From contig JBBQHF010000001.1 of the NCBI GenBank assembly GCA_038323715.1, positions 45,549 to 109,548 on the forward strand: a stretch of 64,000 nucleotides of DNA. The letters run 5' to 3'. Each line of letters starts with the position of its first letter. The stretch's first letter is position 1. Source of the stretch: Patescibacteria group bacterium. GTDB taxonomy: Bacteria > Patescibacteriota > Patescibacteriia > Patescibacteriales > UBA12465. Under the pieces are notes generated by a model that was not told where the DNA came from, made no database searches, and saw nothing but the letters and a program-made list of their open reading frames with translations. Positions 8,780 through 44,423 of the stretch are shown here, in pieces. The position numbers and the translations under genes are program-made.

Positions 8780-10738
8780 ATGTGGCGAGATTCTAACAAA
8801 CAAAGGCACTCTGTTAAAGATGCGGTCAATAGTAGCCGTTTACGTCTTATCGTAGCGGTTGTTTTTTTATTGATGGGTTCTTTGCTCTACAAATTATATA
8901 GCGTTCAAATAGGTCAATTTGATCTGTACACGGCGATGGCCTCGTCTCAACATCAAGTTTATAGCAAGTTAAAACCAGAGAGAGGGAAAATATTTTTAAG
9001 TGAAAATAAGAATGGTGTTGAAAAATTATATCCTTTAGCCACAAATAAAGACTTCGCGGAAGTTTTTATTGTTCCTAAAGATGTTGCCTATCCGCAGGTA
9101 ATGGCCGAGAAACTTTTTAATTTTTTTGATAAACCAAAATTAGAGGCAGATTTGAAGGCAAAATCAGCCACGGGGACGACAATGAATATTGCGACCTCTA
9201 CTAAAAATGAAATCATTGGAAAATATTTAAGCAAACTAGATAAACCGGGCGATCCCTATGAGCCTTTAGTTGCTAAATTATCAGGTGAAGAGTTAGTTAA
9301 ACTTTATTCTTATTTATCTTCAGCCGACCAGTCCTCAGCTTCATCGCCTATTTTGCTTCAACCCGAAGAGTTGGAGTTAAAATTAGGGCAGATTGTTTAT
9401 GCTAATAATCCTGAAGAAGAGTTTACTATTAAGGGCATTGGTTTTGATTTGCAGCCATATCGTTATTATCCCGAAAATGAAATTGGGTCTAATCTTTTAG
9501 GTTTCGTTTCTTATGTAGATGGTGAGGGGCAGGGGCGTTATGGTTTGGAAGAATTTTTTAATGAAGAATTGTTTGGTAAATATGGGTCTTTAAAATCTGA
9601 GAGAGGCGGTAAAAGTGATATGATGATTGTCAATGACCGAGAATATATTAAACCAGAAGCAGGCGATGATTTAATTCTGACGGTAGATAGAAATATAGAA
9701 TTTGCTGCTTGTGAAAAGTTAAAACAATCAGTGGAAAAACATGGGGCTACTGGGGGGTCGGTTATTGTGATGAACCCAAAAACAGGCGCAATAATCGCCA
9801 TGTGCTCTTACCCTGATTTTGATCCTAACAATTATCGTGACGTGAAAGATATTTCCTATTATAATAATCCGGCGGTTTATTATCAGTATGAGCCCGGTTC
9901 AGTATTTAAGACCGTTACCATGGCGATTGCCATTGATCAGGGCAAAGTTTCTCCTACTACTACATATAAAGATGAGGGGCAGATAATGATTAAAGGTTGG
10001 CCAAAACCGATTAAAAATTCTGATTTTTCCACTCATGGTCCTCATGGGGTAGTTGACATGACGGTTGTTTTGGATAATTCTCTTAATACCGGAGCAATAT
10101 TTGCTATGAATCAAGTAGGCCCTAAAATCTTTTCCGATTATGTAAAAAAATTTGGTTTTGGAGAAAGGACGGGGATTGAACTTGGTTCTGAAAGTGCTGG
10201 TAATATAGACAATCTTTTGAAAACCAAGGTTAGAGATATTGATGCTGCGACTGCTTCTTTTGGTCAAGGATTAGCGGCCACCCCTTTGCAAATGATTATG
10301 CCTTATCAGGCACTAGCCAATAAGGGGATGATGATGAAACCATATATTATTAAAAGTATCGTTTATCCTAATGGAAAAAAAGATGAGACCATTCCGAAGC
10401 AATCTGGTCGAGTGGTTTCAGAAAAAACCGCCGCTACCGTGGACGCTATGTTAGTTAATGTTGTTGAGAAGGGGCATTCAGTAAAAGCATCTGTCCCCGG
10501 ATATTATATAGGGGGAAAAACGGGGACCGCTCAAGTCGCTACTTTAGGTGGTTATAGTGCCAACAACTATATACATACTTTTATTGGCATTGCTCCGATT
10601 GAGGACCCCGCCTTTGTGATGTTAACTAAAATTGATAACCCTAAGGATGTCCAATATGCTGAAGGCTCAGCCCTCCCTCTGTGGAGAGATATTGCTGAAT
10701 TTATTTTAAATTATTACGCCGTTCCAAAAACCAGATAA
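8780..10738 (+). CDS. ftsI: Penicillin-binding protein 2 / FtsI-type peptidoglycan transpeptidase
   Basis: N-terminal TM and PBP dimerisation domain. Transpeptidase motifs SVFK (EPGSVFKTV), SxN-like, and KTG (GGKTGTAQV). Confidence 0.85.
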   Translation: MWRDSNKQRHSVKDAVNSSRLRLIVAVVFLLMGSLLYKLYSVQIGQFDLYTAMASSQHQVYSKLKPERGKIFLSENKNGVEKLYPLATNKDFAEVFIVPKDVAYPQVMAEKLFNFFDKPKLEADLKAKSATGTTMNIATSTKNEIIGKYLSKLDKPGDPYEPLVAKLSGEELVKLYSYLSSADQSSASSPILLQPEELELKLGQIVYANNPEEEFTIKGIGFDLQPYRYYPENEIGSNLLGFVSYVDGEGQGRYGLEEFFNEELFGKYGSLKSERGGKSDMMIVNDREYIKPEAGDDLILTVDRNIEFAACEKLKQSVEKHGATGGSVIVMNPKTGAIIAMCSYPDFDPNNYRDVKDISYYNNPAVYYQYEPGSVFKTVTMAIAIDQGKVSPTTTYKDEGQIMIKGWPKPIKNSDFSTHGPHGVVDMTVVLDNSLNTGAIFAMNQVGPKIFSDYVKKFGFGERTGIELGSESAGNIDNLLKTKVRDIDAATASFGQGLAATPLQMIMPYQALANKGMMMKPYIIKSIVYPNGKKDETIPKQSGRVVSEKTAATVDAMLVNVVEKGHSVKASVPGYYIGGKTGTAQVATLGGYSANNYIHTFIGIAPIEDPAFVMLTKIDNPKDVQYAEGSALPLWRDIAEFILNYYAVPKTR

Positions 10739-10778
10739 ATAAATTGTTAATTGTACTCTGGAAAGCTAATGGAAATAT

Positions 10779-12062
10779 ATGAAGAAATTATTGCAATTAA
10801 AATTGAAAATCTTCGCTAAACTTATTTTAAAAAAATATAAGCCAGTTGTTGTTGGAATTACCGGATCAATTGGCAAAAGCAGCGCTAAAGAAGCAATCTA
10901 TCATGTTCTAAAAAATAAATTTAAGGTTAGAACTAGTTTTAAAAATTATAATAACGAAATCGGATTACCGCTTACGATTATTGGGGTCACGTCTCCAGGC
11001 AGAAACCTGTTCGGTTGGATAAATGTATTTTTCCGGGTAGGTTTTTTGTTGTTAATTAAAGATAAAAATTATCCCCAGGTTTTAGTTTTAGAAATGGGTG
11101 TTGATAGGCCGGGAGATATGGAGTATCTAACGTCTATTGTGCATGTTAACGTTGCCATTGTTACCTCGGTTAGTTATTCACATCTTGAATATTTCGGTAG
11201 TCTGCAAAATATAAAGAAAGAGAAGCAGGTATTAGTAGAAAAATTAGATAGTAAGGGTTTGGCAATTTTAAATTATGACAGTGAGTCAGTTAAGGAAATG
11301 GCCGAGTTCAGCAAGGCGAGGATTATAAGTTATGGATTGAAAGAGGCTGACTTAAAAGCCCAAGATATCATTTATAATTTTACTCGTGGGCGCTACGAAT
11401 TGTCGGGAATTAATTTTAAATTAAATAATGGAGAGTCTATTGTCCCGGTCTTCATGCACAACATAATGTCAGAGCCGGCTATTTATGCTGCTTTAGCAGC
11501 CGCGGCTGTTGGTTTATATTTTAAAATGAACTTAGTTGAAATCGCTTCGGCTCTTAGTGATTTCAGTTTGCCCTTGGGTAGAATGAACTTGCTACCAGGC
11601 ATAAAACACTCTTTTATTATAGACGATACCTATAATTCTTCTCCGGAAGCAGCGATATCAGCGATTAAGATTTTAGGTCTAATTAGTATTGATAAGGAGG
11701 CTAGCAAATATGCGGTTATGGGTGACATGTTAGAGATCGGAGCATATACCGAGGAAGGACATAAGCTGGTCGGCAAAGAAGTTTATAAAAATAAGATTGA
11801 TTTTCTAATTGCAGTTGGTGAAAGAGCGCGCGATTTTATTAGGGGAGCTAAGGCGGCCGGCATTAATGATGAGCATATTTTTTATTTTGACAAACCAGAA
11901 GAAGCTGGAAGATTTCTTCAAAACAGAATTAAAGAGGGCGACGTTCTCTTGATAAAAGGTTCACAAGGCGCTAGAATGGAAAAAATAGTGAAGGAGCTAA
12001 TGGCGGAGCCAGATAAGGCCGGTGAACTTTTAGTAAGACAGGGTAAAGAGTGGGAAACTTAA
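10779..12062 (+). CDS. murF: UDP-MurNAc-tripeptide--D-alanyl-D-alanine ligase MurF
   Basis: Mur-ligase P-loop VVGITGSIGKSS and the MurF domain arrangement. Located in the dcw remnant. Confidence 0.8.
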   Translation: MKKLLQLKLKIFAKLILKKYKPVVVGITGSIGKSSAKEAIYHVLKNKFKVRTSFKNYNNEIGLPLTIIGVTSPGRNLFGWINVFFRVGFLLLIKDKNYPQVLVLEMGVDRPGDMEYLTSIVHVNVAIVTSVSYSHLEYFGSLQNIKKEKQVLVEKLDSKGLAILNYDSESVKEMAEFSKARIISYGLKEADLKAQDIIYNFTRGRYELSGINFKLNNGESIVPVFMHNIMSEPAIYAALAAAAVGLYFKMNLVEIASALSDFSLPLGRMNLLPGIKHSFIIDDTYNSSPEAAISAIKILGLISIDKEASKYAVMGDMLEIGAYTEEGHKLVGKEVYKNKIDFLIAVGERARDFIRGAKAAGINDEHIFYFDKPEEAGRFLQNRIKEGDVLLIKGSQGARMEKIVKELMAEPDKAGELLVRQGKEWET

Positions 12063-12071
12063 ATAATAATT

Positions 12072-12932
12072 ATGAAAATAATAATTCTTGGTGGGCAAGG
12101 AAATCTCGGGTCTCAACTAGTTAAAGTTTTAGGGCAAGATCATGAGGTTTTTTCTTTTGATCGTTCTGATTTTAATGCGTTGGATAAAAACATTCTTTCC
12201 GGTGTTGTGCTTGATATCAAGCCCGAAGTCATTATTAATTGTGTCGCTTATAATGCGGTTGATAAATGCGAAGATAAAGATATTTATACTGAAGCATTAT
12301 CTTTAAATAGAGATTTGCCAGCTAATTTAGCGGAGCTCGCTCTACGGATTGACGCGATCCTAGTTCATTATTCAACCGATTATGTTTTTAGCGGTCTCGA
12401 GACGAAGCGGGAGTTTTCCGAAGAAGACACACCAAACCCGATTAATAAATACGGAGAAAGTAAGTTTTTAGGAGAAATGGAAATTTTGCGTCACAAGGAT
12501 CAGGGTTTAAAATATTATTTAATTAGGACCTCTAAACTTTTCGGGCCGAAAGGTGAAAGTGAGCAAGCTAAGCCAAGTTTTTTTGACATTATGCTCACTT
12601 TATCGCAAGATAAGAAAGAAGTTACTGTTGTTAACGAAGAGCTCAGTTGCTTTACTTATACCCCTGATTTAGCCTCAGCTACCGCCCGATTATTATCTTC
12701 CCGAACTCCTTATGGTATTTATCATTTAGTTAATGAGGGGGCAGTGACTTGGTACGACGGTGCCCTAGAATTATTTAGACTAGCAAAACGCGAGGTCGCT
12801 ATTAGATCTATTAGAAGTGAAAATTTAGCTAGAGCGGCTAGACGACCCAAATTTTCTGTTCTCAAAAATAATAAAACAAAAAAATTACGTCTTTATTCGG
12901 AGGCACTCAAGGACTATTTACATAATAATTAG
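12072..12932 (+). CDS. rfbD: dTDP-4-dehydrorhamnose reductase
   Basis: MKIIILGGQGNLGSQL Rossmann motif and YSTDYVF active-site region typical of RmlD. Confidence 0.8.
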   Translation: MKIIILGGQGNLGSQLVKVLGQDHEVFSFDRSDFNALDKNILSGVVLDIKPEVIINCVAYNAVDKCEDKDIYTEALSLNRDLPANLAELALRIDAILVHYSTDYVFSGLETKREFSEEDTPNPINKYGESKFLGEMEILRHKDQGLKYYLIRTSKLFGPKGESEQAKPSFFDIMLTLSQDKKEVTVVNEELSCFTYTPDLASATARLLSSRTPYGIYHLVNEGAVTWYDGALELFRLAKREVAIRSIRSENLARAARRPKFSVLKNNKTKKLRLYSEALKDYLHNN

Positions 12933-12938
12933 AAACAT

Positions 12939-13664
12939 ATGAGAGGAATAATATTATCAGGCGGAAGCGGAACTAGACTCCGCCCACTTACTAAAATTAC
13001 CAGTAAGCAACTTTTGCCAATTTACAATCGTCCGATGATTTATTATCCTCTAAATACTTTGATAAAAGCGGGAATAAAAGAAATCCTGATTATTGTTTCT
13101 CCGGAAAGAGCGGGGGATTATTTAAATTTGCTTGGTTCTGGCAAAGAATTCGGGGTAAAATTTACTTATGAAATTCAAGATAAGCCCGAGGGTTTAGCCC
13201 AGGCTTTCATCATCGGCGAAAATTTTATTGACCAGGAGAACGTCGCTATGATTTTGGGGGACAATATTTTTGAAGATGATTTTTCTGAAGATATTAAAAA
13301 TTTTAAGGGAGGCGCCAAAATATTTGCTAAACACGTGCCTGACCCTGAAAGGTTTGGGGTGGTCAAATTTAATGATGAGCTGAAAGCAGAAAAAATTGTA
13401 GAGAAACCACAAGAGTTTTTAAGTAATTATGCCGTTACCGGGTTATATGTTTATGATAAAAAAATTGTAGAAATTGCTAAGAATATGAAACCAAGCCCAC
13501 GGGGCGAGCTAGAAATTACTGATGTTAATAATTATTATTTAGAAAAAGGTGAACTAGAGGTGGCGATGGTAAATGGAGAATGGCTTGATGCGGGAACTTT
13601 TGAGAGTCTACTTAAAGCACAAAATTTTGCTAAAGAAAAATTAGATAGTAAAATGTTGATATAA
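12939..13664 (+). CDS. Sugar-phosphate nucleotidyltransferase (RmlA/glucose-1-phosphate thymidylyltransferase-like, short form)
   Basis: MRGIILSGGSGTRLRPLT signature. The 241-aa product is shorter than canonical RmlA. Confidence 0.65.
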   Translation: MRGIILSGGSGTRLRPLTKITSKQLLPIYNRPMIYYPLNTLIKAGIKEILIIVSPERAGDYLNLLGSGKEFGVKFTYEIQDKPEGLAQAFIIGENFIDQENVAMILGDNIFEDDFSEDIKNFKGGAKIFAKHVPDPERFGVVKFNDELKAEKIVEKPQEFLSNYAVTGLYVYDKKIVEIAKNMKPSPRGELEITDVNNYYLEKGELEVAMVNGEWLDAGTFESLLKAQNFAKEKLDSKMLI

Positions 13665-13669
13665 AAAAA

Positions 13670-13692
13670 CAGGATTCCGAGAAAGAATCCTG
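13670..13692. terminator. Bidirectional intrinsic terminator between convergent genes
   Basis: caggattc-cgagaaa-gaatcctg hairpin flanked by an A-run on one side and a T-rich stretch on the other. Confidence 0.5.
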
Positions 13693-13715
13693 TAGTTGTT
13701 TAAAAGCGTTTTGAG

Positions 13716-14042
13716 CTAAGCGGATGTCATAATCTGATAAATCAGGTTTTTTCTTGTAATCTTCTGATGTTCAACGATAGTTCCGTCGAACGAGAATTCC
13801 ATGAAAAAATCTGTTTCATTTTGATTAGTCCAACGTCTTTGTCTAACATCGACCTTTTTTAGGCCGAGATTACTACCGAGAAACCTTTTGAGTTCTCCCT
13901 CGGTTTCCAGTGGGCAAGCTAGATTTTTTTGGTCTAAATGACCTCTAACTTTTTCCATAACTCTGGATACTTGACTTTCCGCCATTGCGTCATACATGAC
14001 TTTTTTCTTTGCGACGCCGTTAGTTGCTGCGTTGTTGCTCAT
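13716..14042 (-). CDS. Hypothetical 108-aa protein
   Basis: ORF on the minus strand driven by a perfect consensus promoter. No family recognised. Confidence 0.5.
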   Translation of the reverse strand: MSNNAATNGVAKKKVMYDAMAESQVSRVMEKVRGHLDQKNLACPLETEGELKRFLGSNLGLKKVDVRQRRWTNQNETDFFMEFSFDGTIVEHQKITRKNLIYQIMTSA

Positions 14043-14105
14043 AATGCGATTTTTTTTGAGGCTTTTGCACCTCGGTTAAACTTATTTTAAAAAAACTATA
14101 AAATA

Positions 14106-14134
14106 ATTATAAAGTTTTTTTAAACTTTTGTCAA
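14106..14134 (-). promoter_or_regulatory. Perfect consensus sigma70 promoter (TTGACA-17-TATAAT) on the minus strand
   Basis: Reverse complement of 14106-14134 reads TTGACA-aaagtttaaaaaaactt-TATAAT. Lies about 60 nt upstream of the 108-aa ORF. Confidence 0.55.
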
Positions 14135-14136
14135 GT

Positions 14137-15093
14137 ATGAAATTAGCTGTCGGCTTTATAACTTATAACGATTCCAGCGCTAAATATTTGAGTGATTTTT
14201 TGCCTAGTCTAAAAAGGGCTTTGGATTTTCTGCCCAAGAAAGATAGACAAATTTTAGCTTGGGACAACAGCCATTCTGATTTTAATATTAATCGCTTGGC
14301 ACTAGAATATTTTACTCAGCAAAACCGGGAAGCTATCAGTATTTTCTCTTCGGAAAAAAATATCGGTTTTGGCGCTGCTTATAATGAATTAATTAAAAAA
14401 GCTAAACAAGCGGGGGCGACCTACTTCTTAACTATTAACCCGGACGTTTTATTAGAAACAGACACAATCAAAAAATTGTTTGATAAGCTGGAATTAGAAC
14501 CGACCCTGGCTTCGGTCGCTCCAAAAATTTTACGCTGGGATTTTGATAAAAAATCTAAAACCAATCAAATAGATTCCTGCGGTTTAAAGCTAAAGAATGG
14601 TTTAAAATTTATTGATTTAGGCCAGGGTGAAATTGATAATGGGCAATACGATAAGGCGGATATTCTAGGTTCTTCGGGGGCAATGGGGCTGTTTAGAATG
14701 TCTTCTTTGGATAAAGTAAAAGGTAAATTCGGCTATTATGACTCCAGGTTCTTTATGTATAAGGAGGATTGTGATCTAGCTTATAGGCTAAAATTGGCTG
14801 GCTTTAAATCATCCTTAGTCCCATGGGCCTTGGCCTATCACGATAGAACAGCCGCCTTCTACGGACAGGGAATATGGCAATTTTTAGCCAATAGACGTCA
14901 AGCTAGTCGCCTGGTTAGAGCCTGGTCATTTAAGAACCAACACCTGCTTTTTGTCAAACATTTTAAAAGTGAGGGCCTGTGGAGTCAGTTAAAAATAGTC
15001 TTCAGGGTGACTTCTTTATTATTTTTTTCTCTTATATTAGAGCAATTTAACTTAAAAGAGTATCCCGCCGTCTTTAAATTCTTAAAGTATTGA
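14137..15093 (+). CDS. Family 2 glycosyltransferase
   Basis: MKLAVGFITYNDS start typical of GT2. DxD-like region and overall GT-A layout. The ORF track start at 14128 is a TTG, so the ATG at 14137 is preferred. Confidence 0.7.
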   Translation: MKLAVGFITYNDSSAKYLSDFLPSLKRALDFLPKKDRQILAWDNSHSDFNINRLALEYFTQQNREAISIFSSEKNIGFGAAYNELIKKAKQAGATYFLTINPDVLLETDTIKKLFDKLELEPTLASVAPKILRWDFDKKSKTNQIDSCGLKLKNGLKFIDLGQGEIDNGQYDKADILGSSGAMGLFRMSSLDKVKGKFGYYDSRFFMYKEDCDLAYRLKLAGFKSSLVPWALAYHDRTAAFYGQGIWQFLANRRQASRLVRAWSFKNQHLLFVKHFKSEGLWSQLKIVFRVTSLLFFSLILEQFNLKEYPAVFKFLKY

Positions 15094-15177
15094 CTAATAT
15101 AAAATAATGTGATAAATTGATTAGAGTTCAAACAGTTGAACGCTTGTATAATAAAACTAAAGGCTTTATTTTTTTAT

Positions 15178-16215
15178 ATGGAAAACTTACTAGAAAAAAT
15201 CATTAAAGAGGAAAAAAGCGAAGAATTGGGTCGTTTAGATGCCATGAATATTGTTAATTCTCTTTTTTCTGAATTATTAGAAAGAGAACGCGATGTTTTA
15301 ACTAGAAGATTTGGTTTAAAGGGTGATAAGAATGAAACATTAGAAAAGATTGGCGGTATCCACAAGCTTACTCGTGAAAGAGTTAGGCAGATTGAAGCTG
15401 CCAGTATTAGAAAAATAAAAAAGTTAGAAAGTCTAGAAAGTTATATATATTCTTTAAAACACACTGTTTACAATCTTTTGGAGGAACACGGTGGTCTTAT
15501 TAGACGTGATTATTTGCTTGATATTTTAACTGTTATATCTCTAGAATTAAATTCTGATAAATCTGAGGTTATGAATGACGAAAAAGTTCGTCAAGCCTAT
15601 AAAAACCATTTCAATTTTTTAATTTCCAAACTAATGGCTGATGACTTGGAGCTTGTAAGTAACAACGAACAATTCACTCCGTCATTTAAATTGAAAGATT
15701 CCGAGGTTGGTTATTTAGAAGAAATTGCTAGTGACTTAATGAGCAAGGTTGAATCTTTAAACAAAACTTTAAAGACTGAAGATTTGTTGGACATTTTAAA
15801 ACAGCTTGAGTCATATGGTCGCAATCAGCAAAAAATGAACAAAGTTGACAGTGTTAATATCGAATCTATTTTTAAGAGTCAGGCTTTTCCCGATAAAGCG
15901 GCAACCATTAACGCCAATAAAGGACTTTATTCTTTAATGCAGGCTGTGAAAAATTTAGAACAGAATAAATATGGAGAATGGGGGGGCGCTAATTGGCAAG
16001 AAATTAAACCCAAAACAGTTAATGATAAGATATATTTAGTCTTAAAACATGAAGGTAAGCCTTTACATTTTACAGAAATTGCTCATAAAATTAATGATGT
16101 AAAATTTGATAAGAAGAAGGCTAATGCGGCCACTGTTCATAATGAATTGATTCTAGATAATCGGTATGTTTTGATAAGTCGTGGGACTTATGGTTTAAAA
16201 GAATGGCAGAAATAA
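15178..16215 (+). CDS. Sigma70 region-4 (HTH) domain protein with a C-terminal domain of unknown function
   Basis: RDVLTRRFGL...TLEKIGGIHKLTRERVRQIEAASIRKIKK is a canonical sigma70 region 4.2 HTH. There is no region 2 (-10 recognition), and about 260 aa of unknown domain follow. Start taken at MENLLEK. Confidence 0.5.
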   Translation: MENLLEKIIKEEKSEELGRLDAMNIVNSLFSELLERERDVLTRRFGLKGDKNETLEKIGGIHKLTRERVRQIEAASIRKIKKLESLESYIYSLKHTVYNLLEEHGGLIRRDYLLDILTVISLELNSDKSEVMNDEKVRQAYKNHFNFLISKLMADDLELVSNNEQFTPSFKLKDSEVGYLEEIASDLMSKVESLNKTLKTEDLLDILKQLESYGRNQQKMNKVDSVNIESIFKSQAFPDKAATINANKGLYSLMQAVKNLEQNKYGEWGGANWQEIKPKTVNDKIYLVLKHEGKPLHFTEIAHKINDVKFDKKKANAATVHNELILDNRYVLISRGTYGLKEWQK

Positions 16216-16240
16216 TTTTTTAGTTTACCAATAATTTCCA

Positions 16241-16277
16241 GAAACCCAATCTAATCAGATTGGGTTTCTTTTTTTTC
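16241..16277 (+). terminator. Rho-independent terminator
   Basis: gaaacccaatc-taatca-gattgggtttc 11-bp stem followed by tttttttt. Confidence 0.7.
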
Positions 16278-16319
16278 TTAAAATATGATAAAATCTTAAT
16301 ATAACTATATACTTAAAAT

Positions 16320-17768
16320 ATGAATATAGTCATTAATACTTCGGCTCTAGATAGATTCTTGGCCTTACCACCCGACCAGATGTTCTGGGTCTTTTTTGGT
16401 AATTTTGGTTGGATTGTAATCGGGGTATTTTTTATCTATGGCGTTTTACAAGTCTATCTTTTTTGGATTAGAGAAAATTGGCAAAATACTCATAAAAATG
16501 TTTTGTTAGCGATTGATATTCCTAAGGGTAATGAACAATCTCCGAAAGCCGTTGAAAACATGTTTACTTATTTAGCGGGCGCCCACGGTTCAGTTAATTT
16601 TTTTGAAAAATGGTTTGAGGGTAAATTTCAAAAATCTTTTAGTTATGAAGTTGCTAGTTTAGAAGGATATACTCAATTTTTAATTAGGACTCCGGCAGAA
16701 TATAGGAATCTAATAGAATCTTCTGTCTATTCTCAATACCCTGATGCCGAAATTTCTGAAGTTGATGATTATACTGATGCTGTGCCACAAAAATATCCTG
16801 ATGAAGAATATGATGTTTGGGGGACAGAATTCATGCAGGCTGGCCCTTGGGTTTATCCGATAAAATGTTATAAGGATTTTGAACATCAAATGGGACCTAG
16901 CGAAACTCAATTTAAAGACCCGATGGCAGCCTTAATGGATTTGTGTGGTTCGCTTCGTCAAGGAGAGCAGCTTTGGATTCAATTTATAGTTACGCCGATA
17001 GGGTTTGATTGGGTTAAAGATTCAGAAAAGGAAATTGATAAAATCTTAGGGAGAAAGGCTAAAGTAAAGCCAAGTTTGGCTATGCAAGGGCTGGAAGTGA
17101 TGGGAAATGTGAGCGAAATTTTTTATAGTATTTGGGGGGACGTAGAAGAGTCTAAACCTAAAGAGGAGAGACAAAAGACGATGATGGATTTAAATCCGTT
17201 AGAGAAAAGAAAAATTGAAGGGGTTCATGAAAAACTTTCCAAACTGTCTTTTGAAGCAAAAATTAGAGTTGTTTATGTTGCCAAAAAAGATGTTATGAAT
17301 AAAGCGAAGGTTGCTAATGGCATGGTTGGTTATATGAAACAGTTTGCCTCACTTGATTTAAACAATTTAAAACCCGATATTAAAAAGACATTTACTAAAA
17401 CCGTGTATTTTAGACAAGGCCCGAGATTAAATGTAAAAAAGAATAATATTTTTAGAGCATATGTCGGACGCTCGGATGGAATGGGAATCAATCCTGGAAT
17501 TTATAATATTGAAGAGTTGGCCACTCTCTGGCATTTCCCGGTTGAAGCAAATGTTAAAGCTTCTTTGGTCCAAAAGGCTCCTGGCAGAAAAGCGGACGCC
17601 CCCTCTTCTTTACCCCTAGCCTCAACTTTAACTGCCCCGGCGGAGAATGCTTTGAGGTCTGGTATATTTAACAGTAATTTTAATTTTGATAAACAAGTTA
17701 AGGAAGATAATCCAGGACCCCTAAATGAAATTAATTCTAACCCTCCAAGCAATTTACCTTTTGTTTAA
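16320..17768 (+). CDS. Hypothetical membrane-anchored protein (482 aa)
   Basis: One N-terminal TM helix (FWVFFGNFGWIVIGVFFIYGVL) then a large soluble domain with a Pro/Ser-rich C-terminus. No family recognised. Confidence 0.5.
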   Translation: MNIVINTSALDRFLALPPDQMFWVFFGNFGWIVIGVFFIYGVLQVYLFWIRENWQNTHKNVLLAIDIPKGNEQSPKAVENMFTYLAGAHGSVNFFEKWFEGKFQKSFSYEVASLEGYTQFLIRTPAEYRNLIESSVYSQYPDAEISEVDDYTDAVPQKYPDEEYDVWGTEFMQAGPWVYPIKCYKDFEHQMGPSETQFKDPMAALMDLCGSLRQGEQLWIQFIVTPIGFDWVKDSEKEIDKILGRKAKVKPSLAMQGLEVMGNVSEIFYSIWGDVEESKPKEERQKTMMDLNPLEKRKIEGVHEKLSKLSFEAKIRVVYVAKKDVMNKAKVANGMVGYMKQFASLDLNNLKPDIKKTFTKTVYFRQGPRLNVKKNNIFRAYVGRSDGMGINPGIYNIEELATLWHFPVEANVKASLVQKAPGRKADAPSSLPLASTLTAPAENALRSGIFNSNFNFDKQVKEDNPGPLNEINSNPPSNLPFV

Positions 17769-17784
17769 TAATATTTAAGAAGAA

Positions 17785-18978
17785 ATGAAAATAGGAATTG
17801 ACGCTCGCTTCTACGGTCCAATCGGTAAAGGGCTTGGTCGTTACACTCAGGAAGTGGTAGACAATATAATAAAAATTAATGAAAATCTAGACGTTGATAG
17901 TTTTGAATTTGTTATATTTTTAAGTCCTGATAACTACGATGAGTTTATTTCTAACAGTCCAAAGGTTAAGAAGGTCATGATTAATATTGGTTGGTATTCA
18001 TGGCGCGAACAAGTGGTAATGCCTTTTTATATCTGGCGTGAACATCTAGATTTAATTCATTTCCCTCATTTTAATATCCCCGTTTTTACACCTGTAAAAT
18101 TTGTCATGACTTTGCATGATTTAATTTTAACCCATTTTCCCACCGTAAGAGCCACAACTAAAAAAGTCTTTATTTATAAAATAAAAAATTTAGCGTATAA
18201 GCTCGTAATGATGGCGGCTATTAGTCGATCGCAAAAAATAATTACTGTTTCTGAATTTACAAAAAAAGATATTATTCATAAATTTAAAATCCCCGCCAGT
18301 AAAATCATTGTTACCTATGAGGGGGTCGCTAATTTGACTAGAGGCCGTGATTCTTTGTTTGTTTCCAAGCTTGATGTTGGCGAAACTTTAGATAAATATC
18401 ATATCGGTAAAAAGTTCTTATTGTATGTGGGGAACGCCTATCCTCATAAAAATTTAGAATTTTTAATCAGAGTATTTAGTCGTCTCCATGCTTTAAGGCC
18501 AGATTTAAAATTAGTTTTAGTAGGGAAAAATGATTATTTCTATTCTCGCATTCACGAATATGCTCGGTCTATTAATTTATGGCAAAAAGAAAATATTAAT
18601 AGCCCAATTATTTTCCCTGGCTATATCCCAGATGCGCAATTAGAAATAATGTATCAGGAAGCGCTTGTTTATGTTTTTCCTTCCCTGTATGAAGGATTTG
18701 GTTTGCCTCCGCTAGAGGCGATGGCTAAGAGTTGCCCAGTTGTTAGTTCTGATCGGGCTAGTTTGCCAGAAATTTTAGGAGCCGCCGCTTTGTATTTTAA
18801 TCCTGAAGACGAAGACGATATGTTAAAAAAAATAAACTATATTCTAGACGATAGCGCCAAAAGAGAAGACCTCAAGAGTAAGGGGTTAGAACAAATTAAA
18901 AAATATAACTGGTGGGAGTGTGCTAACCAGACATTTTCAGTCTATAGAAATATTTTATTGAATAGCAAACATGATTAA
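17785..18978 (+). CDS. Family 1 (GT4-type) glycosyltransferase
   Basis: C-terminal EGFGLPPLEAMA motif (E-x7-E region) of GT-B retaining glycosyltransferases. Confidence 0.8.
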   Translation: MKIGIDARFYGPIGKGLGRYTQEVVDNIIKINENLDVDSFEFVIFLSPDNYDEFISNSPKVKKVMINIGWYSWREQVVMPFYIWREHLDLIHFPHFNIPVFTPVKFVMTLHDLILTHFPTVRATTKKVFIYKIKNLAYKLVMMAAISRSQKIITVSEFTKKDIIHKFKIPASKIIVTYEGVANLTRGRDSLFVSKLDVGETLDKYHIGKKFLLYVGNAYPHKNLEFLIRVFSRLHALRPDLKLVLVGKNDYFYSRIHEYARSINLWQKENINSPIIFPGYIPDAQLEIMYQEALVYVFPSLYEGFGLPPLEAMAKSCPVVSSDRASLPEILGAAALYFNPEDEDDMLKKINYILDDSAKREDLKSKGLEQIKKYNWWECANQTFSVYRNILLNSKHD

Positions 18979-21472
18979 TAAAAATGCAAAAATAAATAAA
19001 GAGGCCTTAGAAAGGGAGAGACACTCTAGTTTTGTGGTTGATTTAAGACAAAAAGCTGGGGCGATTAAGGATGCTCAAAAATTAATAAACAAACCACAGT
19101 TTGCCTTGTCTTTTAATATACCTAAAAAATCAATTTTTGCCACTATAAAAAAAATATTTAGCAGACATAAAAAGGTGGGGCTTGAATTAGCTGTTCGTGA
19201 TTTGAAATTATTTTCAAAAAATAACAAAATTAATTTCCCTAAAATACATCTTAATTTTAAGTTCGGTTTCGGGAAGAAACAGAGCCTTTGGCAAAAGATA
19301 GTTTTAGATAAGCATAAGATTTTAAGTTCTAAATTTAAAATAGTCGGACGAGAACGTTTAGCGGTTGCCGAAAATACTGCTATTTGGTATAGATCAATTT
19401 TCTCATTCATGATTATGCTGGTATTAATTATAATGCCCATTAAATTATTATCTTATTTTGAGTTGTTGGATTTAAGTGGCCTGGAGGGCAAGGTAATGGA
19501 AAGATCAAAATCAGCTTTAAATAATTTAGTTTCGGCTGCCGATTCCGTTTCCGCGCTTGATTTTAAAGAAGCTGATGCCGAATTTTCTAAGGCTGGACAA
19601 GGATTTTTAGAGGCTCAAGATGACTTAAGTATTATTAGTGATTCTTTGCTTTTTCTAGCGTCTCTTTCTAATGATCCAAAAATGAAGCTAGCGGCTGAAA
19701 GTAAAAAGTTCTTAGCAGCCGGGGCGGTTAGTTCTTCGCTAGGAAAAAATTTAGTGCTCGCGACGGATAGTCTTTTTAATAGTAAGGAAATTGATTTTTT
19801 GGTAGCGCTTGAAAGTTTTTCTAAATATGGTCGTTTGGCAGTTGAAGATGCTAAGCAGCTAGATAAAATTGTTGCTGGCATTAATCCTGATAATTTGCCA
19901 GATGAGTATCGAGAAAAATTTTCTTTGTTATCTAGTCAATCTCATATCTTGAGCTCTAATTTGGAGAACTTTGTTGATGCGGCTGATAAAATGAAAGAAA
20001 TTTTAGGTCTCAGCCAGGATAAACGTTATTTATTAGTTTTTCAAAATAATTCAGAACTGAGAGCTTCCGGCGGATTCTTGGGTAGCTATGCTTTAGTTGA
20101 TTTAAGTGGTGGCAAAATTAAAAACTTAGAAGTACCTGGTGGCGGCTCTTATGATACCGAGGGAGCAATGTCGGTAAAAGTTAAAGCGCCTAAACCTTTA
20201 TGGTTAGTCAATCCGCTTTGGCATTTTTGGGATGCAAATTGGTGGCCAGATTGGACTAAGACCGCGCAAAATTTAATGTGGTTTTATGAGAAGAGTGATG
20301 GCCCCACGGTAGATGGGGTGATTAGTGTTACCCCAACGGTTGTAGAAAAACTTTTGGAAGTTACCGGCCCGATTGATTTAACTGAGGAATATGGGGTTGT
20401 TATTGATAGTGATAATTTTTGGGAAACAGTGCAAAAAATTACGGAACGTAAAAATTTGGAAAAGACTCACCCAGATGACGTTGCCAACTTAAAACAATCA
20501 AGCGAGGCAGTTCAGTCTTCTATTCCTTTAGAGCAGGGATTGGAAAATAATGTAGATAATAAGCCAAAGAAAATTATTGGAGATTTGATGACTAAGATTC
20601 TTGAGATTCTCCCTAAAAAACTTGATAGAAATAATCTTCTAAAAATTATTTCTGCTTTTGAAGATAGCCTAGCCGAAAAACAGGTGATGTTTTATTTTAC
20701 CGACCCTAAATTACAAGCTGAAGTTAGTCGTCGTAACTGGGCCGGAGAAATAAAAGACACTAGCCGTGATTACCTGATGGTTGTAAATACTAATATTGCC
20801 GGACAAAAAACTGATCGTAAAATTGAGGAAAAAATAGATCATCTTTCTCATGTTTATCCTGACGGCCACATCGTAAATACTTTAAAAATAACTCGCTCCC
20901 ATAATGGTATTAAGAATGAAGCCTTAACTGGGGTAAGAAATGTGGACTGGCTAAGGGTTTATGTTCCTGCCGGCAGTCGTCTTATTTCTGCTTCTGGGTT
21001 TAATGCTCCTGATGCAAAATATTTTGAAGAACCTGATGCCACCTGGGAAGATAGTAAATTTTTAGAAAATGAATCAAGGGCGACAGTAGATTCAAAAAGT
21101 GGATTGATGGTGTATTCAGAAAATAATAAAACTGTCTTTGCGGGCTGGGTAATGGTTGACCCTGGCCAAAGTGCTGACATCACAGTTGAGTACGAGTTGC
21201 CATTTAATTTTTTTGATAAAAATGAAAATAATGGTTTTTTAAACCGTTTAAATAAATTATTGAATCCAGAATCTGAAGATTTATGGCCATATTCGCTTTT
21301 AGTACAGAAACAGCCTGGGGCCGCCCCTAGTAGTTTCTATAGTCGCTTGGAGTCTCCAATAGGAATCAGTGCTTTTTGGAAACACCCTGATGATTTAAAT
21401 TGGCAGAGAGGTTGGGAAATATCGGATTATATAAATTCTGATAAATATTTTTCTGTTTTGTTAAAAAAATAA
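18971..21472 (+). CDS. Large membrane-anchored protein, DUF4012-like
   Basis: TM helix near residue 140. Central LVFQNNSELRASGGFLGSYALVDLSGGKI resembles the DUF4012 core found next to cell-wall polysaccharide loci. Overlaps the GT4 stop by 8 nt. Confidence 0.45.
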   Translation: MINKNAKINKEALERERHSSFVVDLRQKAGAIKDAQKLINKPQFALSFNIPKKSIFATIKKIFSRHKKVGLELAVRDLKLFSKNNKINFPKIHLNFKFGFGKKQSLWQKIVLDKHKILSSKFKIVGRERLAVAENTAIWYRSIFSFMIMLVLIIMPIKLLSYFELLDLSGLEGKVMERSKSALNNLVSAADSVSALDFKEADAEFSKAGQGFLEAQDDLSIISDSLLFLASLSNDPKMKLAAESKKFLAAGAVSSSLGKNLVLATDSLFNSKEIDFLVALESFSKYGRLAVEDAKQLDKIVAGINPDNLPDEYREKFSLLSSQSHILSSNLENFVDAADKMKEILGLSQDKRYLLVFQNNSELRASGGFLGSYALVDLSGGKIKNLEVPGGGSYDTEGAMSVKVKAPKPLWLVNPLWHFWDANWWPDWTKTAQNLMWFYEKSDGPTVDGVISVTPTVVEKLLEVTGPIDLTEEYGVVIDSDNFWETVQKITERKNLEKTHPDDVANLKQSSEAVQSSIPLEQGLENNVDNKPKKIIGDLMTKILEILPKKLDRNNLLKIISAFEDSLAEKQVMFYFTDPKLQAEVSRRNWAGEIKDTSRDYLMVVNTNIAGQKTDRKIEEKIDHLSHVYPDGHIVNTLKITRSHNGIKNEALTGVRNVDWLRVYVPAGSRLISASGFNAPDAKYFEEPDATWEDSKFLENESRATVDSKSGLMVYSENNKTVFAGWVMVDPGQSADITVEYELPFNFFDKNENNGFLNRLNKLLNPESEDLWPYSLLVQKQPGAAPSSFYSRLESPIGISAFWKHPDDLNWQRGWEISDYINSDKYFSVLLKK

Positions 21473-21482
21473 ATTAAAATAT

Positions 21483-23489
21483 ATGTTAGCAGAAAAAAAA
21501 CTAAAAAATAAAATCAAAATAGACAGAGAGCCATCATCAGGGCTTTCTGCTTTTACCGAACGCCCGATACCAACAGAAACAGAGGTTGCCAGTTTTGAGC
21601 GTGTGGTCGAACGAGAAGTTAGGCATCAGGAAATTGATTCCAATCTTTCTGAAATTTATAAGGATAATAAGGGCGACTTAATAGATGTAAAAAAAATGAG
21701 TGTTAAAAAAAGACAAGCCTGGATAATTAGAGTTTTTAAAAGAATTATCATTTTAGGACTATTATCCCTTATCGCTTACTTTTGTTATTTTTATTTTTTT
21801 GTTCGTGGTAATGACATGAGTGGCTTGGAGTTTTTAATAGCGGCCCCGGAAAAAGTAGTCGCCGGAGAAGAATTTTCTTATGCCATAAATTACACAAATC
21901 CAACAAAATTTCCTTTGTCAAATTTGTATTTAGAATTAAAATATCCCGAAAATTTTATTTTCTTAAATTCTTCCGAATCCCCAACTAATGGTAACTATGG
22001 ATTTAATTTGGCTGATTTGCCATCAGGCGCGACCAGAACGGTCACGGTTACTGGGACGCTAGTTTCTCAGACTGACTCAGTTAATGTGGTTTCCGGAAGA
22101 TTGAGTTATATCCCAATCAACTTTTCTAGTGAGTTTAAAAAAGAAAGTTCAGATGCCACAATTATTGAGGGGTTCGGTTTTCAAGCAGCGGTGGAAGCGG
22201 CAAATTCCGCTTTCGTTAATCAGGACAACGAATTAGCCCTCTCGTTGTTCGATGTGCAAAATAATCAATTCGCAGATTTTAACTTAGAAATAGTTATGCC
22301 TGAGGGGGGCACTGTGAGTCTAGCTAAAGACAATAAGAATTTAAATGCTAGTTCTACTCTAGTCACTCCCATGCCGGATGATAATTTTATAGCCATTGAA
22401 GATGGCGCAAATAATTGGAAAATATCTGGATTAAGCTTGGGGAGTGGTCCCGAGAAATTAAATTTTATTTATCAGTTTAAAGAACAGCCAAGCTCTTCCG
22501 ATATTACTATTAAGCTCAGTAAGAAATTATTAGATGGTCAGAAGTATGTATTTTGGGAAAAAACAATTTCTCCGGAACTTGTTAAAAGTGACTTAAATTT
22601 AACTCTATTTTTAAATGGCTCCAAAAATAATGGTACGGCCAATTTTGGGGATACTTTAAATTATACTCTCGCCTATAGTAATAAAGGGGATAATACTTTT
22701 AAGGATGCCGTAATTATGGTGGTACTTAATGGCTTTTTCCTTGATTGGAACTCTTTTAAAGCTGACCAAGACGGAGAAGTAAAAACTGGTAAAATGATTG
22801 TTTGGACCAAGAATGATATTTCAGCATTATCAGGAATCAAGCCAGGCGACGCGGGAGAAATTAATTTTTCTATTAAGTTAAAAGATTATTTGGATAGTGA
22901 TTTCGGCAGTAGCATGCAAATAAATTCTTATTCCCAATATGGCGTTAATAACCAAGAATCGGGAGAAGGAAAAAATAGTAGTAATATTATAGAAACAAAA
23001 ATAAATAGCGATTTATATTTAAGCGAACAAATTAGATATTTTGATGATAATAATTTGCCGGTTGGCTCTGGCCCCTTGCCTCCAAAAGTTGGCGAAAAGA
23101 GTAGTTTTAAAGTCTTTTGGACAGTAAAAAATAATTTACATGAATTGCGTAATGCGGAAGTAATTTTAAACTTACCTAATGGCATCAATTGGGATGGCAA
23201 CTCTTCGGTGGGAGCCGGAACTATTTATTATGATGAAAGTAGGCGTTTAGTTATTTGGAATATCGGTCAGTTGCCGGTATCCATATATCAGACAGATGCT
23301 TCTTTTTCTGTTTCTGTTACGCCATCTGAATCCGATCGTGATAAAATTTTAATTTTATCTCCAGGCTCAACAATTAGTGCTTCAGATAACGAAACTCAGG
23401 CGGTAATCAGTCGCAAAACTGGTCCCAAAACAACTAAATTAGAAGATGATGATATTGCGAGTTTAAATAATTCGGGCAGGGTTGAATAG
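21483..23489 (+). CDS. Large extracytoplasmic surface protein with repeated beta-rich domains (hypothetical)
   Basis: Short cytoplasmic N-terminus, one TM (IIILGLLSLIAYFCYFYFF), then about 560 aa of Ser/Thr/Asn-rich beta-type sequence with a recurring 'LNxxxxxxG...TxxG' pattern reminiscent of DUF11/CARDB-type repeats. Confidence 0.45.
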   Translation: MLAEKKLKNKIKIDREPSSGLSAFTERPIPTETEVASFERVVEREVRHQEIDSNLSEIYKDNKGDLIDVKKMSVKKRQAWIIRVFKRIIILGLLSLIAYFCYFYFFVRGNDMSGLEFLIAAPEKVVAGEEFSYAINYTNPTKFPLSNLYLELKYPENFIFLNSSESPTNGNYGFNLADLPSGATRTVTVTGTLVSQTDSVNVVSGRLSYIPINFSSEFKKESSDATIIEGFGFQAAVEAANSAFVNQDNELALSLFDVQNNQFADFNLEIVMPEGGTVSLAKDNKNLNASSTLVTPMPDDNFIAIEDGANNWKISGLSLGSGPEKLNFIYQFKEQPSSSDITIKLSKKLLDGQKYVFWEKTISPELVKSDLNLTLFLNGSKNNGTANFGDTLNYTLAYSNKGDNTFKDAVIMVVLNGFFLDWNSFKADQDGEVKTGKMIVWTKNDISALSGIKPGDAGEINFSIKLKDYLDSDFGSSMQINSYSQYGVNNQESGEGKNSSNIIETKINSDLYLSEQIRYFDDNNLPVGSGPLPPKVGEKSSFKVFWTVKNNLHELRNAEVILNLPNGINWDGNSSVGAGTIYYDESRRLVIWNIGQLPVSIYQTDASFSVSVTPSESDRDKILILSPGSTISASDNETQAVISRKTGPKTTKLEDDDIASLNNSGRVE

Positions 23490-23512
23490 AATAAATCAAT
23501 ACCAGAAATTAA

Positions 23513-24610
23513 ATGTTTAAAATAGTAAAAACTAAAAAAAATGGTTTACGCCAGGGGTTGTTGCATACCGCTCATGGAGTTTTATCGACGCCATTTTATA
23601 TGCCCGACGCAACTCGCGGTTTTGTAAAATTAACCAGTAATGACGAAATCATCAGAACGGGGACTAAGGCTCTGGTGGTAAATACCTTTCACTTATATCT
23701 TCAACCCGGTTTAAAAATTATTGAAAAAGCGGGGGGTATTCATAAATTCATGAATTGGAGCGGCCCATTATTATCTGACTCCGGTGGTTTTCAGGTCTTT
23801 TCGTTGATTCATAAAAATAGTCAGATGGGAAAAATAGGTGATGACAAGGTTATTTTTAAATCCCCAATTGATGGATCTAAACACGAGCTTACGCCAGAGA
23901 AATCAATTCAAATACAGTTTTTTCTCGGTGTCGATATGATGGTTTGTTTAGATGATTGTCCGCCTAATGAATTTGCGCGAGCTGATTTGGAAAAGGCTGT
24001 AGATAGAACTATTTCTTGGGCAAGAAGATGCAAAGTAGAATACGATAAACAATTAAAAAAAAGACGCCTCAAAGGTTTAAAGCGTCCGCTTTTATTTGCC
24101 GTTATTCAAGGTGGGGCGGAGATAGACTTAAGAGAACGTTGCGCTAAAGAACTAGTTAAAATAGGTTTTGATGGTTATGGTTTTGGCGCGCGACCAGTTG
24201 ATGAACAGGGAAATTTTTTGGAAGAAGTTTTAATTAAAACCGCAGAATTTATTCCCAAAGAATCTTTGCGTTTTGCTCTTGGTATTGGCACTCCGGAAGA
24301 TATCCAGCGTTGCGCCCTAATGGGCTGGGACATGTTTGATTGTGTTATTCCCACTAGAGAGGGCAGACATGGTAAGCTCTTTGTCAGCAAAACTGCTTCC
24401 AAATACGAAACTATTAATATTAATAATGCTAAATTTACCAATGATTTTAAGGCTATTAATAAAAATAGCGGTTTAAAGGAGCTCAAAATAAATTCTCGGG
24501 CCTATCTTCATCACCTGTTTAAATTACAAGAACCATTGGGGCATAAATTAGCCAGTTTAAATAATTTAGAATTTTATCAAAAAAATATTAAAAGCCTTGA
24601 TAAATTATAA
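23513..24610 (+). CDS. tgt: Queuine tRNA-ribosyltransferase
   Basis: LHTAHGVLSTPFYMPDATRG and the DCVIPTR zinc/active-site region. Confidence 0.85.
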   Translation: MFKIVKTKKNGLRQGLLHTAHGVLSTPFYMPDATRGFVKLTSNDEIIRTGTKALVVNTFHLYLQPGLKIIEKAGGIHKFMNWSGPLLSDSGGFQVFSLIHKNSQMGKIGDDKVIFKSPIDGSKHELTPEKSIQIQFFLGVDMMVCLDDCPPNEFARADLEKAVDRTISWARRCKVEYDKQLKKRRLKGLKRPLLFAVIQGGAEIDLRERCAKELVKIGFDGYGFGARPVDEQGNFLEEVLIKTAEFIPKESLRFALGIGTPEDIQRCALMGWDMFDCVIPTREGRHGKLFVSKTASKYETININNAKFTNDFKAINKNSGLKELKINSRAYLHHLFKLQEPLGHKLASLNNLEFYQKNIKSLDKL

Positions 24611-37994: not shown

Positions 37995-38000
37995 AACAAT

Positions 38001-44410: not shown

Positions 44411-44423
44411 ATTAAACAAAACT

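Follow-up and report, generated by a model that had tools for sequence, protein, structure and literature searches.

The window analyzed here, a 64,000-nucleotide stretch from a Patescibacteria group bacterium (contig JBBQHF010000001.1, positions 45,549 to 109,548), carries at its positions 14137-23489 six plus-strand genes. They encode a family 2 glycosyltransferase (GT2), a helix-turn-helix (HTH) protein combining sigma-70 region 4 with a HARE-HTH domain, a 482-amino-acid (aa) protein of family DUF8128, a family 4 glycosyltransferase (GT4), a DUF4012 protein, and a CLIPPER-like protein (Table 1). A sequence-only reading had described them as one tight cell-envelope locus and a candidate for host-attachment or surface-glycan machinery. 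Open reading frames (ORFs) and Pfam domains confirm the six genes, as well as the 8-nt overlap between the GT4 and DUF4012 genes; the term “giant surface proteins” was an overstatement for products of 833 and 668 aa. By the source names of its homologues, the organism is a Candidatus Falkowbacteria-like patescibacterium. We consider it probable that the stretch is a lineage-specific juxtaposition, found in a Falkowbacteria-type clade, of three things rather than one system: a putative surface-glycan module, the gene of a candidate general transcription factor, and a protein resembling one half of a membrane-anchored ATPase machine.

Table 1. Genes and transcription signals in and around the six-gene stretch (window coordinates)
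Feature	Position	Strand	Basis or remark
rmlD	12072-12932	+	Pfam RmlD_sub_bind 1e-67; dTDP-rhamnose pathway
rmlA	12939-13664	+	Pfam NTP_transferase 1.5e-66; dTDP-rhamnose pathway
Bidirectional hairpin terminator	13669-13693	both	Terminator scan; between rmlA and small minus-strand gene
108-aa lineage-specific gene	13716-14042	-	No Pfam/NCBIfam match; inserted between rmlA and GT2
Promoter of 108-aa gene	14134-14106	-	12/12 consensus sigma-70
GT2	14137-15093 (alternative start 14128)	+	Pfam Glycos_transf_2
HTH-gene promoter	15090-15118	+	Promoter scan; -35 TTGACT, 17-nt spacer, extended -10 TGaTAAATT
HTH gene	15178-16215 (alternative start 15136)	+	Pfam Sigma70_r4 and HARE-HTH
HTH-gene intrinsic terminator	16240-16279	+	13-bp stem (16240-16269), 4-nt loop, T-run
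DUF8128 extended -10 promoter	16284-16294	+	TATGATAAAAT; intergenic comparison, 14 clade loci
DUF8128 (482-aa protein)	16320-17768	+	No match in local Pfam copy
GT4	17785-18978	+	Pfam Glycos_transf_1 / Glyco_transf_4
DUF4012 protein	18971-21472	+	Pfam DUF4012, 101.6 bits
CLIPPER-like protein (668 aa)	21483-23489	+	Pfam DUF11, 43 bits; DUF7619 match sub-threshold
tgt (queuine tRNA-ribosyltransferase)	23513-24610	+	Pfam TGT 7e-100; housekeeping

The packing of the six genes does not set them apart. Because 51 of the 58 window genes lie on the plus strand and same-strand gaps have a median of 15.5 nt (coding density ~92%, GC skew positive over the entire window), tight co-directional packing is uninformative here, and the idea of a distinctive block was not upheld, as equally tight packing is found throughout the window and runs on into tgt, pyk, and eno. 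Position 23489 is not a unit boundary, since tgt starts after a 23-nt gap without a terminator. The largest gaps within the block, 84 and 104 nt, are those on either side of the HTH gene. The remainder of the window is housekeeping in nature, with dcw genes, cysS, metG, tgt, pyk, eno, gap, ribosomal proteins, nusG, guaB, and purA, plus an [FeFe]-hydrogenase. No Rfam family was found in the whole window at gathering thresholds or in 13600-23600 at E ≤ 1, and a tRNA scan of the window found none.

Gene order was compared across 80 related loci (one genome per species; DUF8128 identity 84% to 37%), in which ORFs were called and then labeled by phmmer and clustering. Twenty-one of these, with DUF8128 at least ~49% identical, make up the close clade of Falkowbacteria-type Patescibacteria, and the distant loci include Kerfeld-, Uhr-, Buchanan-, and Magasanikbacteria and Paceibacter. 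From mraZ to eno the order is identical in close relatives (DUF8128 82% and 68% identical), while the full order rmlD-rmlA-GT2-HTH-DUF8128-GT4-DUF4012-DUF11-tgt, where DUF11 stands for the CLIPPER-like gene, was found only in the 21 close-clade loci among the 80 scanned. Within the clade, rmlA adjoins GT2 in most relatives (gaps of -4 to 42 nt), the genes from DUF8128 to tgt are tightly packed (DUF11-tgt gap of 1-43 nt in 20 of 21 loci), and the overlap or near-abutment of GT4 and DUF4012 is kept. The larger gaps flank the HTH gene in every clade genome.

Outside the clade, the surroundings of DUF8128 are different. An ATPase gene lies directly downstream of it in 44 of the 47 distant loci with enough flank, the place held by GT4 in 19 of 20 clade loci, where the gaps are mostly below 35 nt. 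The HTH gene precedes DUF8128 in 29 of 48 distant loci, and secD-secF lie within four genes upstream in half of them (24/48). None of GT2, GT4, DUF4012, and DUF11 was present within 10 kb of the HTH-DUF8128 pair in the distant loci, and a profile hidden Markov model search of these loci for DUF4012 found none. A single syntenic unit is thus contradicted, as the block order is lost outside the clade and the HTH-DUF8128 pair persists without glycosyltransferases or DUF4012. In a sister lineage (L020-L038), a DUF1361 membrane protein and then a 510-530-aa membrane GT2 (Glyco_trans_2_3) follow the ATPase, so that the HTH-DUF8128-ATPase set is also neighbored there by a glycosyltransferase, albeit a different one. 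The 108-aa minus-strand gene is restricted to L001/L002, L033, and L084, the nearest relatives, where it splits the otherwise adjoining rmlA and GT2.

The HTH gene appears to be insulated from its neighbors, with a promoter and a terminator of its own. In the promoter, the stop codon of GT2 overlaps the -35 element, and the motif CTTGACTAATATAAAATAATrTGATArATT is kept almost base-for-base in the clade; distant loci have equivalents of the form TTGACA/T-N17-TGnTAnnnT. This conserved -35 (TTGACT/A) with extended -10 (15089-15118) has counterparts at the equivalent positions in L002-L031, L046, L056, and L076. A hairpin and T-run stand at the terminator position in all 21 clade loci and most distant loci, although the stem sequence varies. 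Terminator-like matches in the region (14 found, 9.6 ± 3.6 expected) are not above chance as a whole; the only strong one is that at 16240, in agreement with the single strong terminator that the sequence-only reading had placed after the HTH gene.

A leaderless DUF8128 mRNA was considered and dropped, as a conserved extended -10 precedes the ATG by ~25 nt. This promoter and the start codon are spanned by an imperfect direct repeat of 17 nt (CTTAAAATATGAWA...) at 16277-16328. The repeat was the only one returned by the tandem-repeat search, is weak (TRF score 46, 65% matches), and may be due to chance in AT-rich DNA. Because the HTH gene has its own predicted promoter and terminator, and DUF8128 its own promoter, co-transcription of all six genes is unlikely. 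Transcripts would be expected to start near 15125 and 16301, with 3' ends at 16270-16279, and termination is not predicted anywhere from 17768 to 24610.

The HTH ORF most likely starts at the ATG at 15178, which gives 345 aa, as in its 345-346-aa homologues and in an independent gene call. The earlier description as a protein with sigma-70 region 4 only was correct (Sigma70_r4 3.5e-11; 42.9 bits, cut-off 24.1 bits), and a HARE-HTH domain at the C-terminus (1.4e-7) can be added; N-terminal region 4 is followed by a helical middle of ~190 aa without known family and then by this domain. NCBIfam and PDB sigma matches cover only residues ~11-98, which is region 4, and sigma region 2 or 3 was not detected in Pfam, NCBIfam, or PDB comparisons; nor does the protein have a hydrophobic segment. 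Its LTRERVRQIEA stretch aligns with the 4.2 helix of SigA/RpoS (E of 7e-10 to SigA), and both TRERVRQIE in this helix and HNELI in HARE-HTH are at least 95% conserved among 57 orthologues from the fetched loci. As regions 2 and 3 are missing, the protein cannot be a sigma factor. It was not accepted as a delta subunit of RNA polymerase (RpoE) either: it scores 36.8 bits against the delta model TIGR04567, below the 42-bit cut-off, and its HARE-HTH domain is C-terminal (residues 280-345) with no acidic tail following.

Homologues of the HTH protein number more than 5298. It corresponds to fam21714 (Sigma70_r4), which comprises 1320 proteins with a median of 346 aa in 1250 candidate phyla radiation (CPR) genomes and 2 non-CPR genomes (Meheust 2019 supplement). 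The family is a CPR-wide, roughly single-copy hallmark, and no treatment of the sigma-4/HARE-HTH fusion in CPR was found in the literature. Because the -35-recognition and beta-flap helix of primary sigma factors is retained, the protein is most likely a general RNA-polymerase- or promoter-associated factor, predicted from this helix to bind RNA polymerase. Its gene would be monocistronic and probably well expressed. Given that the family occurs in ~1250 CPR genomes, the protein is not a local glycosylation regulator, and the proposal of a regulator embedded in a glycosylation locus also fails on the gene's own promoter and terminator and on the distant loci free of glycosyltransferases. Since the protein would read -35 elements and its own gene has a consensus -35, autoregulation is conceivable.

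The 482-aa protein had been described as a membrane protein. One membrane helix at the N-terminus was indeed found, and the protein does have a family, as precomputed Pfam hits place the identical protein P0001, like nearly all homologues, in PF26449 (DUF8128). The local Pfam-A copy, which possibly lacks the model, gave no match to the 482-aa protein even at E = 1. DUF8128 has 1726 cluster representatives at 50% identity, almost always stand-alone and of ~430-690 aa, and no paper mentioning it was found. In the AlphaFold2 model (pLDDT 73), the single long N-terminal helix spans residues 18-57, with a charge of -1 before and +1 after it. With this weak charge bias the soluble alpha/beta domain is probably cytoplasmic, which would fit a cytoplasmic ATPase as partner.

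When the model was compared with the PDB by Foldseek, each of the best 14 matches was a TrwK/VirB4 chain, and 11 had E ≤ 0.001. Against BFVD it matched Bacillus phage proteins of 551-913 aa at 8e-16 to 1e-14, among them phage G gp156 (8e-16). No Walker A motif ([AG]xxxxGK[ST]) is present in DUF8128. The motifs GRKADAPSSLPL and C-terminal PPxNLPFV are kept in the family down to ~35% identity. PPxNLPFV (window 17700-17768) follows a variable low-complexity linker and resembles a docking peptide for a partner; the other conserved site is at residues 422-432.

The ATPase downstream of DUF8128 in distant loci is a P-loop protein of ~520-760 aa with matches to TrwB_AAD_bind, TraG-D_C, DUF87, and zf_Tbcl_2, and the two sequences that were read (L022, L046) end in a C-terminal treble-clef zinc finger. 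A paralogue of 852 aa in Uhrbacteria (L062:1065-3623) fuses both parts: residues 36-403 align with the DUF8128 protein of the window (BLASTP 2e-20), and residues 412-839 with the split ATPase (7e-113, 42% identity). This fusion is real, though its ATPase domain has a short masked stretch, while a 1016-aa DUF8128-ATPase “fusion” in L078 was discarded as an artefact of a masked N-run. The contig of L062 also carries a split HTH-DUF8128-ATPase set (9920-12562) within 10 kb of the fused gene. This suggests two paralogous DUF8128-ATPase machines per genome, which matches the approximately two copies in published counts.

Six phage records, from the three phages G, SP-10, and 0105phi7-2, cover 81-85% of the fused protein by sequence at 8e-32 to 4e-10 and ~20% identity. 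The proteins named are phage G gp156 (8e-32), SP-10 ORF203, and 0105phi7-2 gp033. An independent annotator labeled gp033 “DNA helicase or translocase” with a C-terminal HHpred match to TrwK (7O43), and its gene adjoins ParA/RepA and RepB-primase genes in a replication/partition module. DUF8128 can thus be read as an N-terminal module that anchors in the membrane, is part of a VirB4/TrwB-class ATPase machine, and has been split off into a gene of its own.

The ATPase family is nearly universal in CPR. Its fam06764 (TrwB_AAD_bind) was found in 2083 CPR genomes, at about two copies each, and in 30 non-CPR genomes (Meheust 2019 supplement), and for this reason the partner ATPase is very probably encoded elsewhere in the present genome. 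Quinonero-Coronel 2025 counted 5713 VirD4-like type IV coupling proteins (T4CPs) in 2918 Patescibacteria genomes, of which 148 were near virB4, and suspected exaptation. Other genes of a type IV secretion system (T4SS), namely VirB3, VirB6, VirB8, pilin, and relaxase, were absent from the Pfam scans of the window. Nor were T4SS genes recognized among the frequent distant-locus neighbors identified (SecD, SecF, SecA, MurB, DUF1361, membrane GT2, MnmA, and AlaRS), where many smaller clusters are unannotated. We found no description in the literature of the conserved HTH-DUF8128-ATPase arrangement of Patescibacteria, of which the window holds only the first two genes.

The remaining genes have a glycan signature. 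GT2 matches Glycos_transf_2 at 3e-9 (a 318-aa call in L084) and is weakly rhamnosyltransferase-like, with 1.5e-6 to NCBIfam TIGR01556, below the cut-off; GT4 matches Glycos_transf_1 at 1e-34. No transmembrane (TM) or hydrophobic segment was found in either, i.e., both are soluble. In the PDB, GT2 had no significant match and GT4 only generic GT4 matches. Among all 58 window ORFs with 108 aa or more, Pfam scans recovered GT2, GT4, rmlA, and rmlD as the only glycan genes.

The DUF4012 domain (PF13196; 101.6 bits against a 28-bit cut-off) occupies residues 349-488 of its 833-aa protein, which consists of a disordered basic cytoplasmic tail (1-140, net charge +23), a TM helix (142-160), and an ectodomain of ~670 aa. 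In the model (pLDDT 72), residues 168-344 form a helical bundle and residues 600-833 a beta-sandwich; between the two lies an alpha/beta core (350-600) in which many polar residues are invariant. Foldseek matches of the C-terminal beta domain to ribophorin I and the M1 peptidase N-domain in the PDB were partial and of low TM-score and are not taken as functional evidence. The CLIPPER-like protein has an N-in tail of ~80 aa, a TM helix (83-106), and an ectodomain of ~560 aa with divergent beta-rich regions and one DUF11 domain (43 bits against a 24.6-bit cut-off, residues 122-203), and showed nothing significant against the PDB by sequence. The earlier description as repeat-containing is not supported at sequence level: segment-against-segment comparison gave no significant internal repeats (z ≤ 1.3), and DUF11 is significant only once. 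Hydrophobicity and charge predict both to be N-in/C-out bitopic proteins with large domains outside. Conserved motifs occur in both tails, S-x-FVVDLR in that of DUF4012 (18971-19390) and F-x-ERPVP and L-x-EIY-x-D-x-x-G-x-x-x-DV in that of the CLIPPER-like protein (21483-21730), which may hint at a common cytoplasmic partner.

The association of DUF4012 with polysaccharides, proposed earlier, is supported by plasmid polysaccharide loci of Rhodococcus and Streptomyces, where DUF4012 lies alongside GT4, a priming sugar transferase, an ABC transporter, rfbA/B/C, a Wzc-like kinase, and an O-antigen-ligase-family protein. Fam04012 (DUF4012) is found in 1300 CPR and 8 non-CPR genomes (Meheust 2019 supplement), and DUF4012 has been reported as enriched in CPR and Gram-positive bacteria with reference to a Bifidobacterium exopolysaccharide (EPS) locus (Meheust 2019). 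This locus, in Bifidobacterium longum 105-A, is cited as containing DUF4012 (PMC5412050 as cited in PMC6744442). DUF11 now carries the name CLIPPER and denotes a CnaA-like isopeptide domain from the stalks of adhesins (PMC12617251). A surface-glycan or envelope module made up of GT2, GT4, DUF4012, and the CLIPPER-like protein is plausible and would be nothing out of the ordinary among known modules. The suggestion of surface-glycan machinery is partly supported for these four genes and is not supported for the HTH gene, for the 482-aa gene, or for the single unit.

Taken together, the stretch would consist of three parts. In the first, rmlD-rmlA-GT2 upstream and GT4-DUF4012-CLIPPER-like downstream would form a surface-glycan module, in which the soluble GT2 and GT4 would build a rhamnose-containing glycan from dTDP-rhamnose on the cytoplasmic face, DUF4012 would act outside the membrane as a glycan assembly or attachment factor, and the CLIPPER-like protein would form a stalk-like structure on the surface and possibly serve as carrier or partner of the glycan. 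The second would be the monocistronic sigma-region-4 and HARE-HTH gene, encoding a general RNA polymerase or promoter factor and not a regulator of its neighbors. The third, DUF8128, would be one half, N-terminal and anchored in the membrane, of a VirB4/TrwB-class ATPase machine, working with an ATPase from a distant gene; in the clade, the GT4-DUF4012-CLIPPER genes would occupy the usual position of this ATPase. A functional link behind the HTH-DUF8128 adjacency is a tentative proposal, inherited gene order being the likelier explanation.

Several observations weigh against this interpretation. The best DUF8128 match to TrwK/VirB4 (1e-4, probability 1.0) comes with low TM-scores (0.28-0.32), and sequence and profile comparisons of DUF8128 with the PDB gave nothing significant. 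The partner ATPase and secD were not found by tblastn in the 64-kb window or in the close-clade loci (±10 kb). The glycan module is incomplete locally, since no priming transferase, flippase or ABC transporter, polymerase, ligase, rmlB, or rmlC is encoded in the window. DUF4012 has no sequence relatives in the PDB and no recognizable catalytic homologue, and its link with GT4 outside CPR consists of the two plasmid loci only, a third in Lachnospira being not clearly polysaccharide-related. The promoter and terminator assignments are predictions from sequence and its conservation. In addition, a single transcript probably covers the DUF8128, GT4, DUF4012, and CLIPPER-like genes in the clade, so these genes may be functionally linked.

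A broader proposal, which we regard as speculative and unlikely, is that the HTH protein, DUF8128, and the zinc-finger ATPase, all from CPR-enriched families without assigned function, form a Patescibacteria-wide membrane-tethered nucleic-acid translocase, related to VirB4-like “translocases” from phages and plasmids, with the HTH protein as DNA-recognition or RNA-polymerase-coupling subunit, and that the clade operon was broken open by the glycan module. If true, it would explain thousands of “orphan T4CPs” in Patescibacteria.

It is distinctly improbable, in our view, that DUF8128 was co-opted in the clade, i.e., uncoupled from the ATPase to serve GT4, DUF4012, and the CLIPPER-like protein, for example as a cytoplasmic membrane scaffold for glycan assembly or export. 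Such a change would account for the replacement of the ATPase by GT4 in 19 of 20 clade loci, with short gaps and one conserved promoter, but the columns invariant in distant DUF8128 and PPxNLPFV are unchanged here, the ATPase is probably still encoded elsewhere as its family is present in 2083 CPR genomes, and the transcription unit of DUF8128 also runs into tgt.

The original idea of one co-regulated envelope or host-attachment locus, with the HTH protein as local regulator and the 482-aa protein as envelope component, has become very unlikely. Six co-directional genes whose order is kept in 19-21 clade genomes, and the presence of glycosyltransferases, DUF4012, and a surface protein, are what one would expect of such a locus. 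Two results tell in part against it directly: the 482-aa protein is homologous to one half of an ATPase, and probably belongs to an ATPase machine, and the full order is confined to the clade, outside which the HTH-DUF8128 pair persists without glycosyltransferases or DUF4012. Furthermore, the HTH family is CPR-wide and roughly single-copy and its gene insulated, and equal tightness reaches tgt, pyk, and eno. That there are no modules at all, only inherited order in a tiny dense genome with GT4, DUF4012, and the CLIPPER-like protein functionally unrelated, is just as hard to accept, since for all the ~92% coding density, the 51 of 58 co-directional genes, and the housekeeping genes interleaved throughout, DUF4012 recurs beside GT4 and rhamnose genes in unrelated Actinomycetota, DUF8128 and the ATPase adjoin in 44 of 47 distant loci and are fused in another case, and the GT4/DUF4012 start-stop overlap is conserved.

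Elsewhere in the window, an 822-aa apparent fusion of two ATP-grasp or D-Ala-D-Ala-ligase-like halves is followed by a FemAB-like Acetyltransf_6 protein (35526-38900), which may represent an unusual way of making peptidoglycan side chains or cross-bridges. Three genes in a row at 43394-46942, for a NuoF-like flavoprotein, a UPF0259-like membrane protein, and the [FeFe]-hydrogenase large subunit, make up a module for fermentative hydrogen metabolism. Pfam gave no family at E ≤ 0.001 for the genes at 57866-59593, 2869-3321, 29276-30124 (minus strand), and 57179-57643 (minus strand), the largest product having 575 aa.

Patescibacteria account for a large share of the diversity of bacteria, and most of the protein families that are their hallmark lack an explanation. 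Here two former unknowns are re-assigned, and the “orphan coupling proteins” gain a concrete partner set through DUF8128, which has a conserved sigma-4/HARE-HTH neighbor and relatives in phages. The locus is also a caution that short gaps and co-directionality do not define functional loci in compact Patescibacteria genomes.

Among known systems, the glycan genes are closest to Gram-positive EPS and capsular polysaccharide loci, in which a bitopic DUF4012 protein likewise lies beside GT4 or other glycosyltransferases and dTDP-rhamnose genes. What the window lacks in comparison is a priming transferase, a flippase or ABC transporter, Wzy, Wzc, and a ligase. The DUF4012 protein of CPR is also longer, at 833 aa with a 140-aa basic tail compared with ~610 aa in the Gram-positive loci, and the pairing with a CLIPPER-like protein is not seen in the actinobacterial ones. 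The 668-aa protein itself shares with CLIPPER fibrillar adhesins an above-cut-off DUF11 domain and an extracytoplasmic location. It differs from them in having one significant domain instead of tandem arrays and an anchor formed by an N-terminal TM helix rather than sortase or OmpA.

The HTH protein resembles sigma-70 region 4 in the 4.2 helix, responsible for reading the -35 element and for beta-flap binding, but differs from sigma-70 factors in having no region 2 or 3. With the delta subunit it shares the HARE-HTH domain, which in the HTH protein is C-terminal, scores below the cut-off, and has no acidic tail. A helical middle of ~190 aa without known family further sets it apart.

DUF8128 finds its counterparts in the VirB4 (TrwK) and T4CP (TrwB/VirD4) ATPases of T4SSs. 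TrwK/VirB4 chains are its sole significant PDB fold matches, its usual downstream partner has the TrwB_AAD_bind, TraG-D_C, and DUF87 domains of T4CPs, and the fused paralogue is laid out like VirB4, with a RecA-like ATPase coming after the N-terminal domain. In contrast to these ATPases, the Patescibacteria protein is split over two genes with no P-loop in DUF8128, the ATPase ends in a treble-clef zinc finger and is not in this window, and the neighbors are secDF and the sigma-4/HARE-HTH gene; “orphan” VirD4-like T4CPs are known from Patescibacteria (PMC12102498). Bacillus phage and phage-plasmid proteins of the “DNA helicase or translocase” kind resemble the fused DUF8128-ATPase over 81-85% of its length, and no other fold matches to the modeled window protein are as strong; they differ as single polypeptides of ~800-900 aa, ~20% identical, that are encoded in replication/partition modules.

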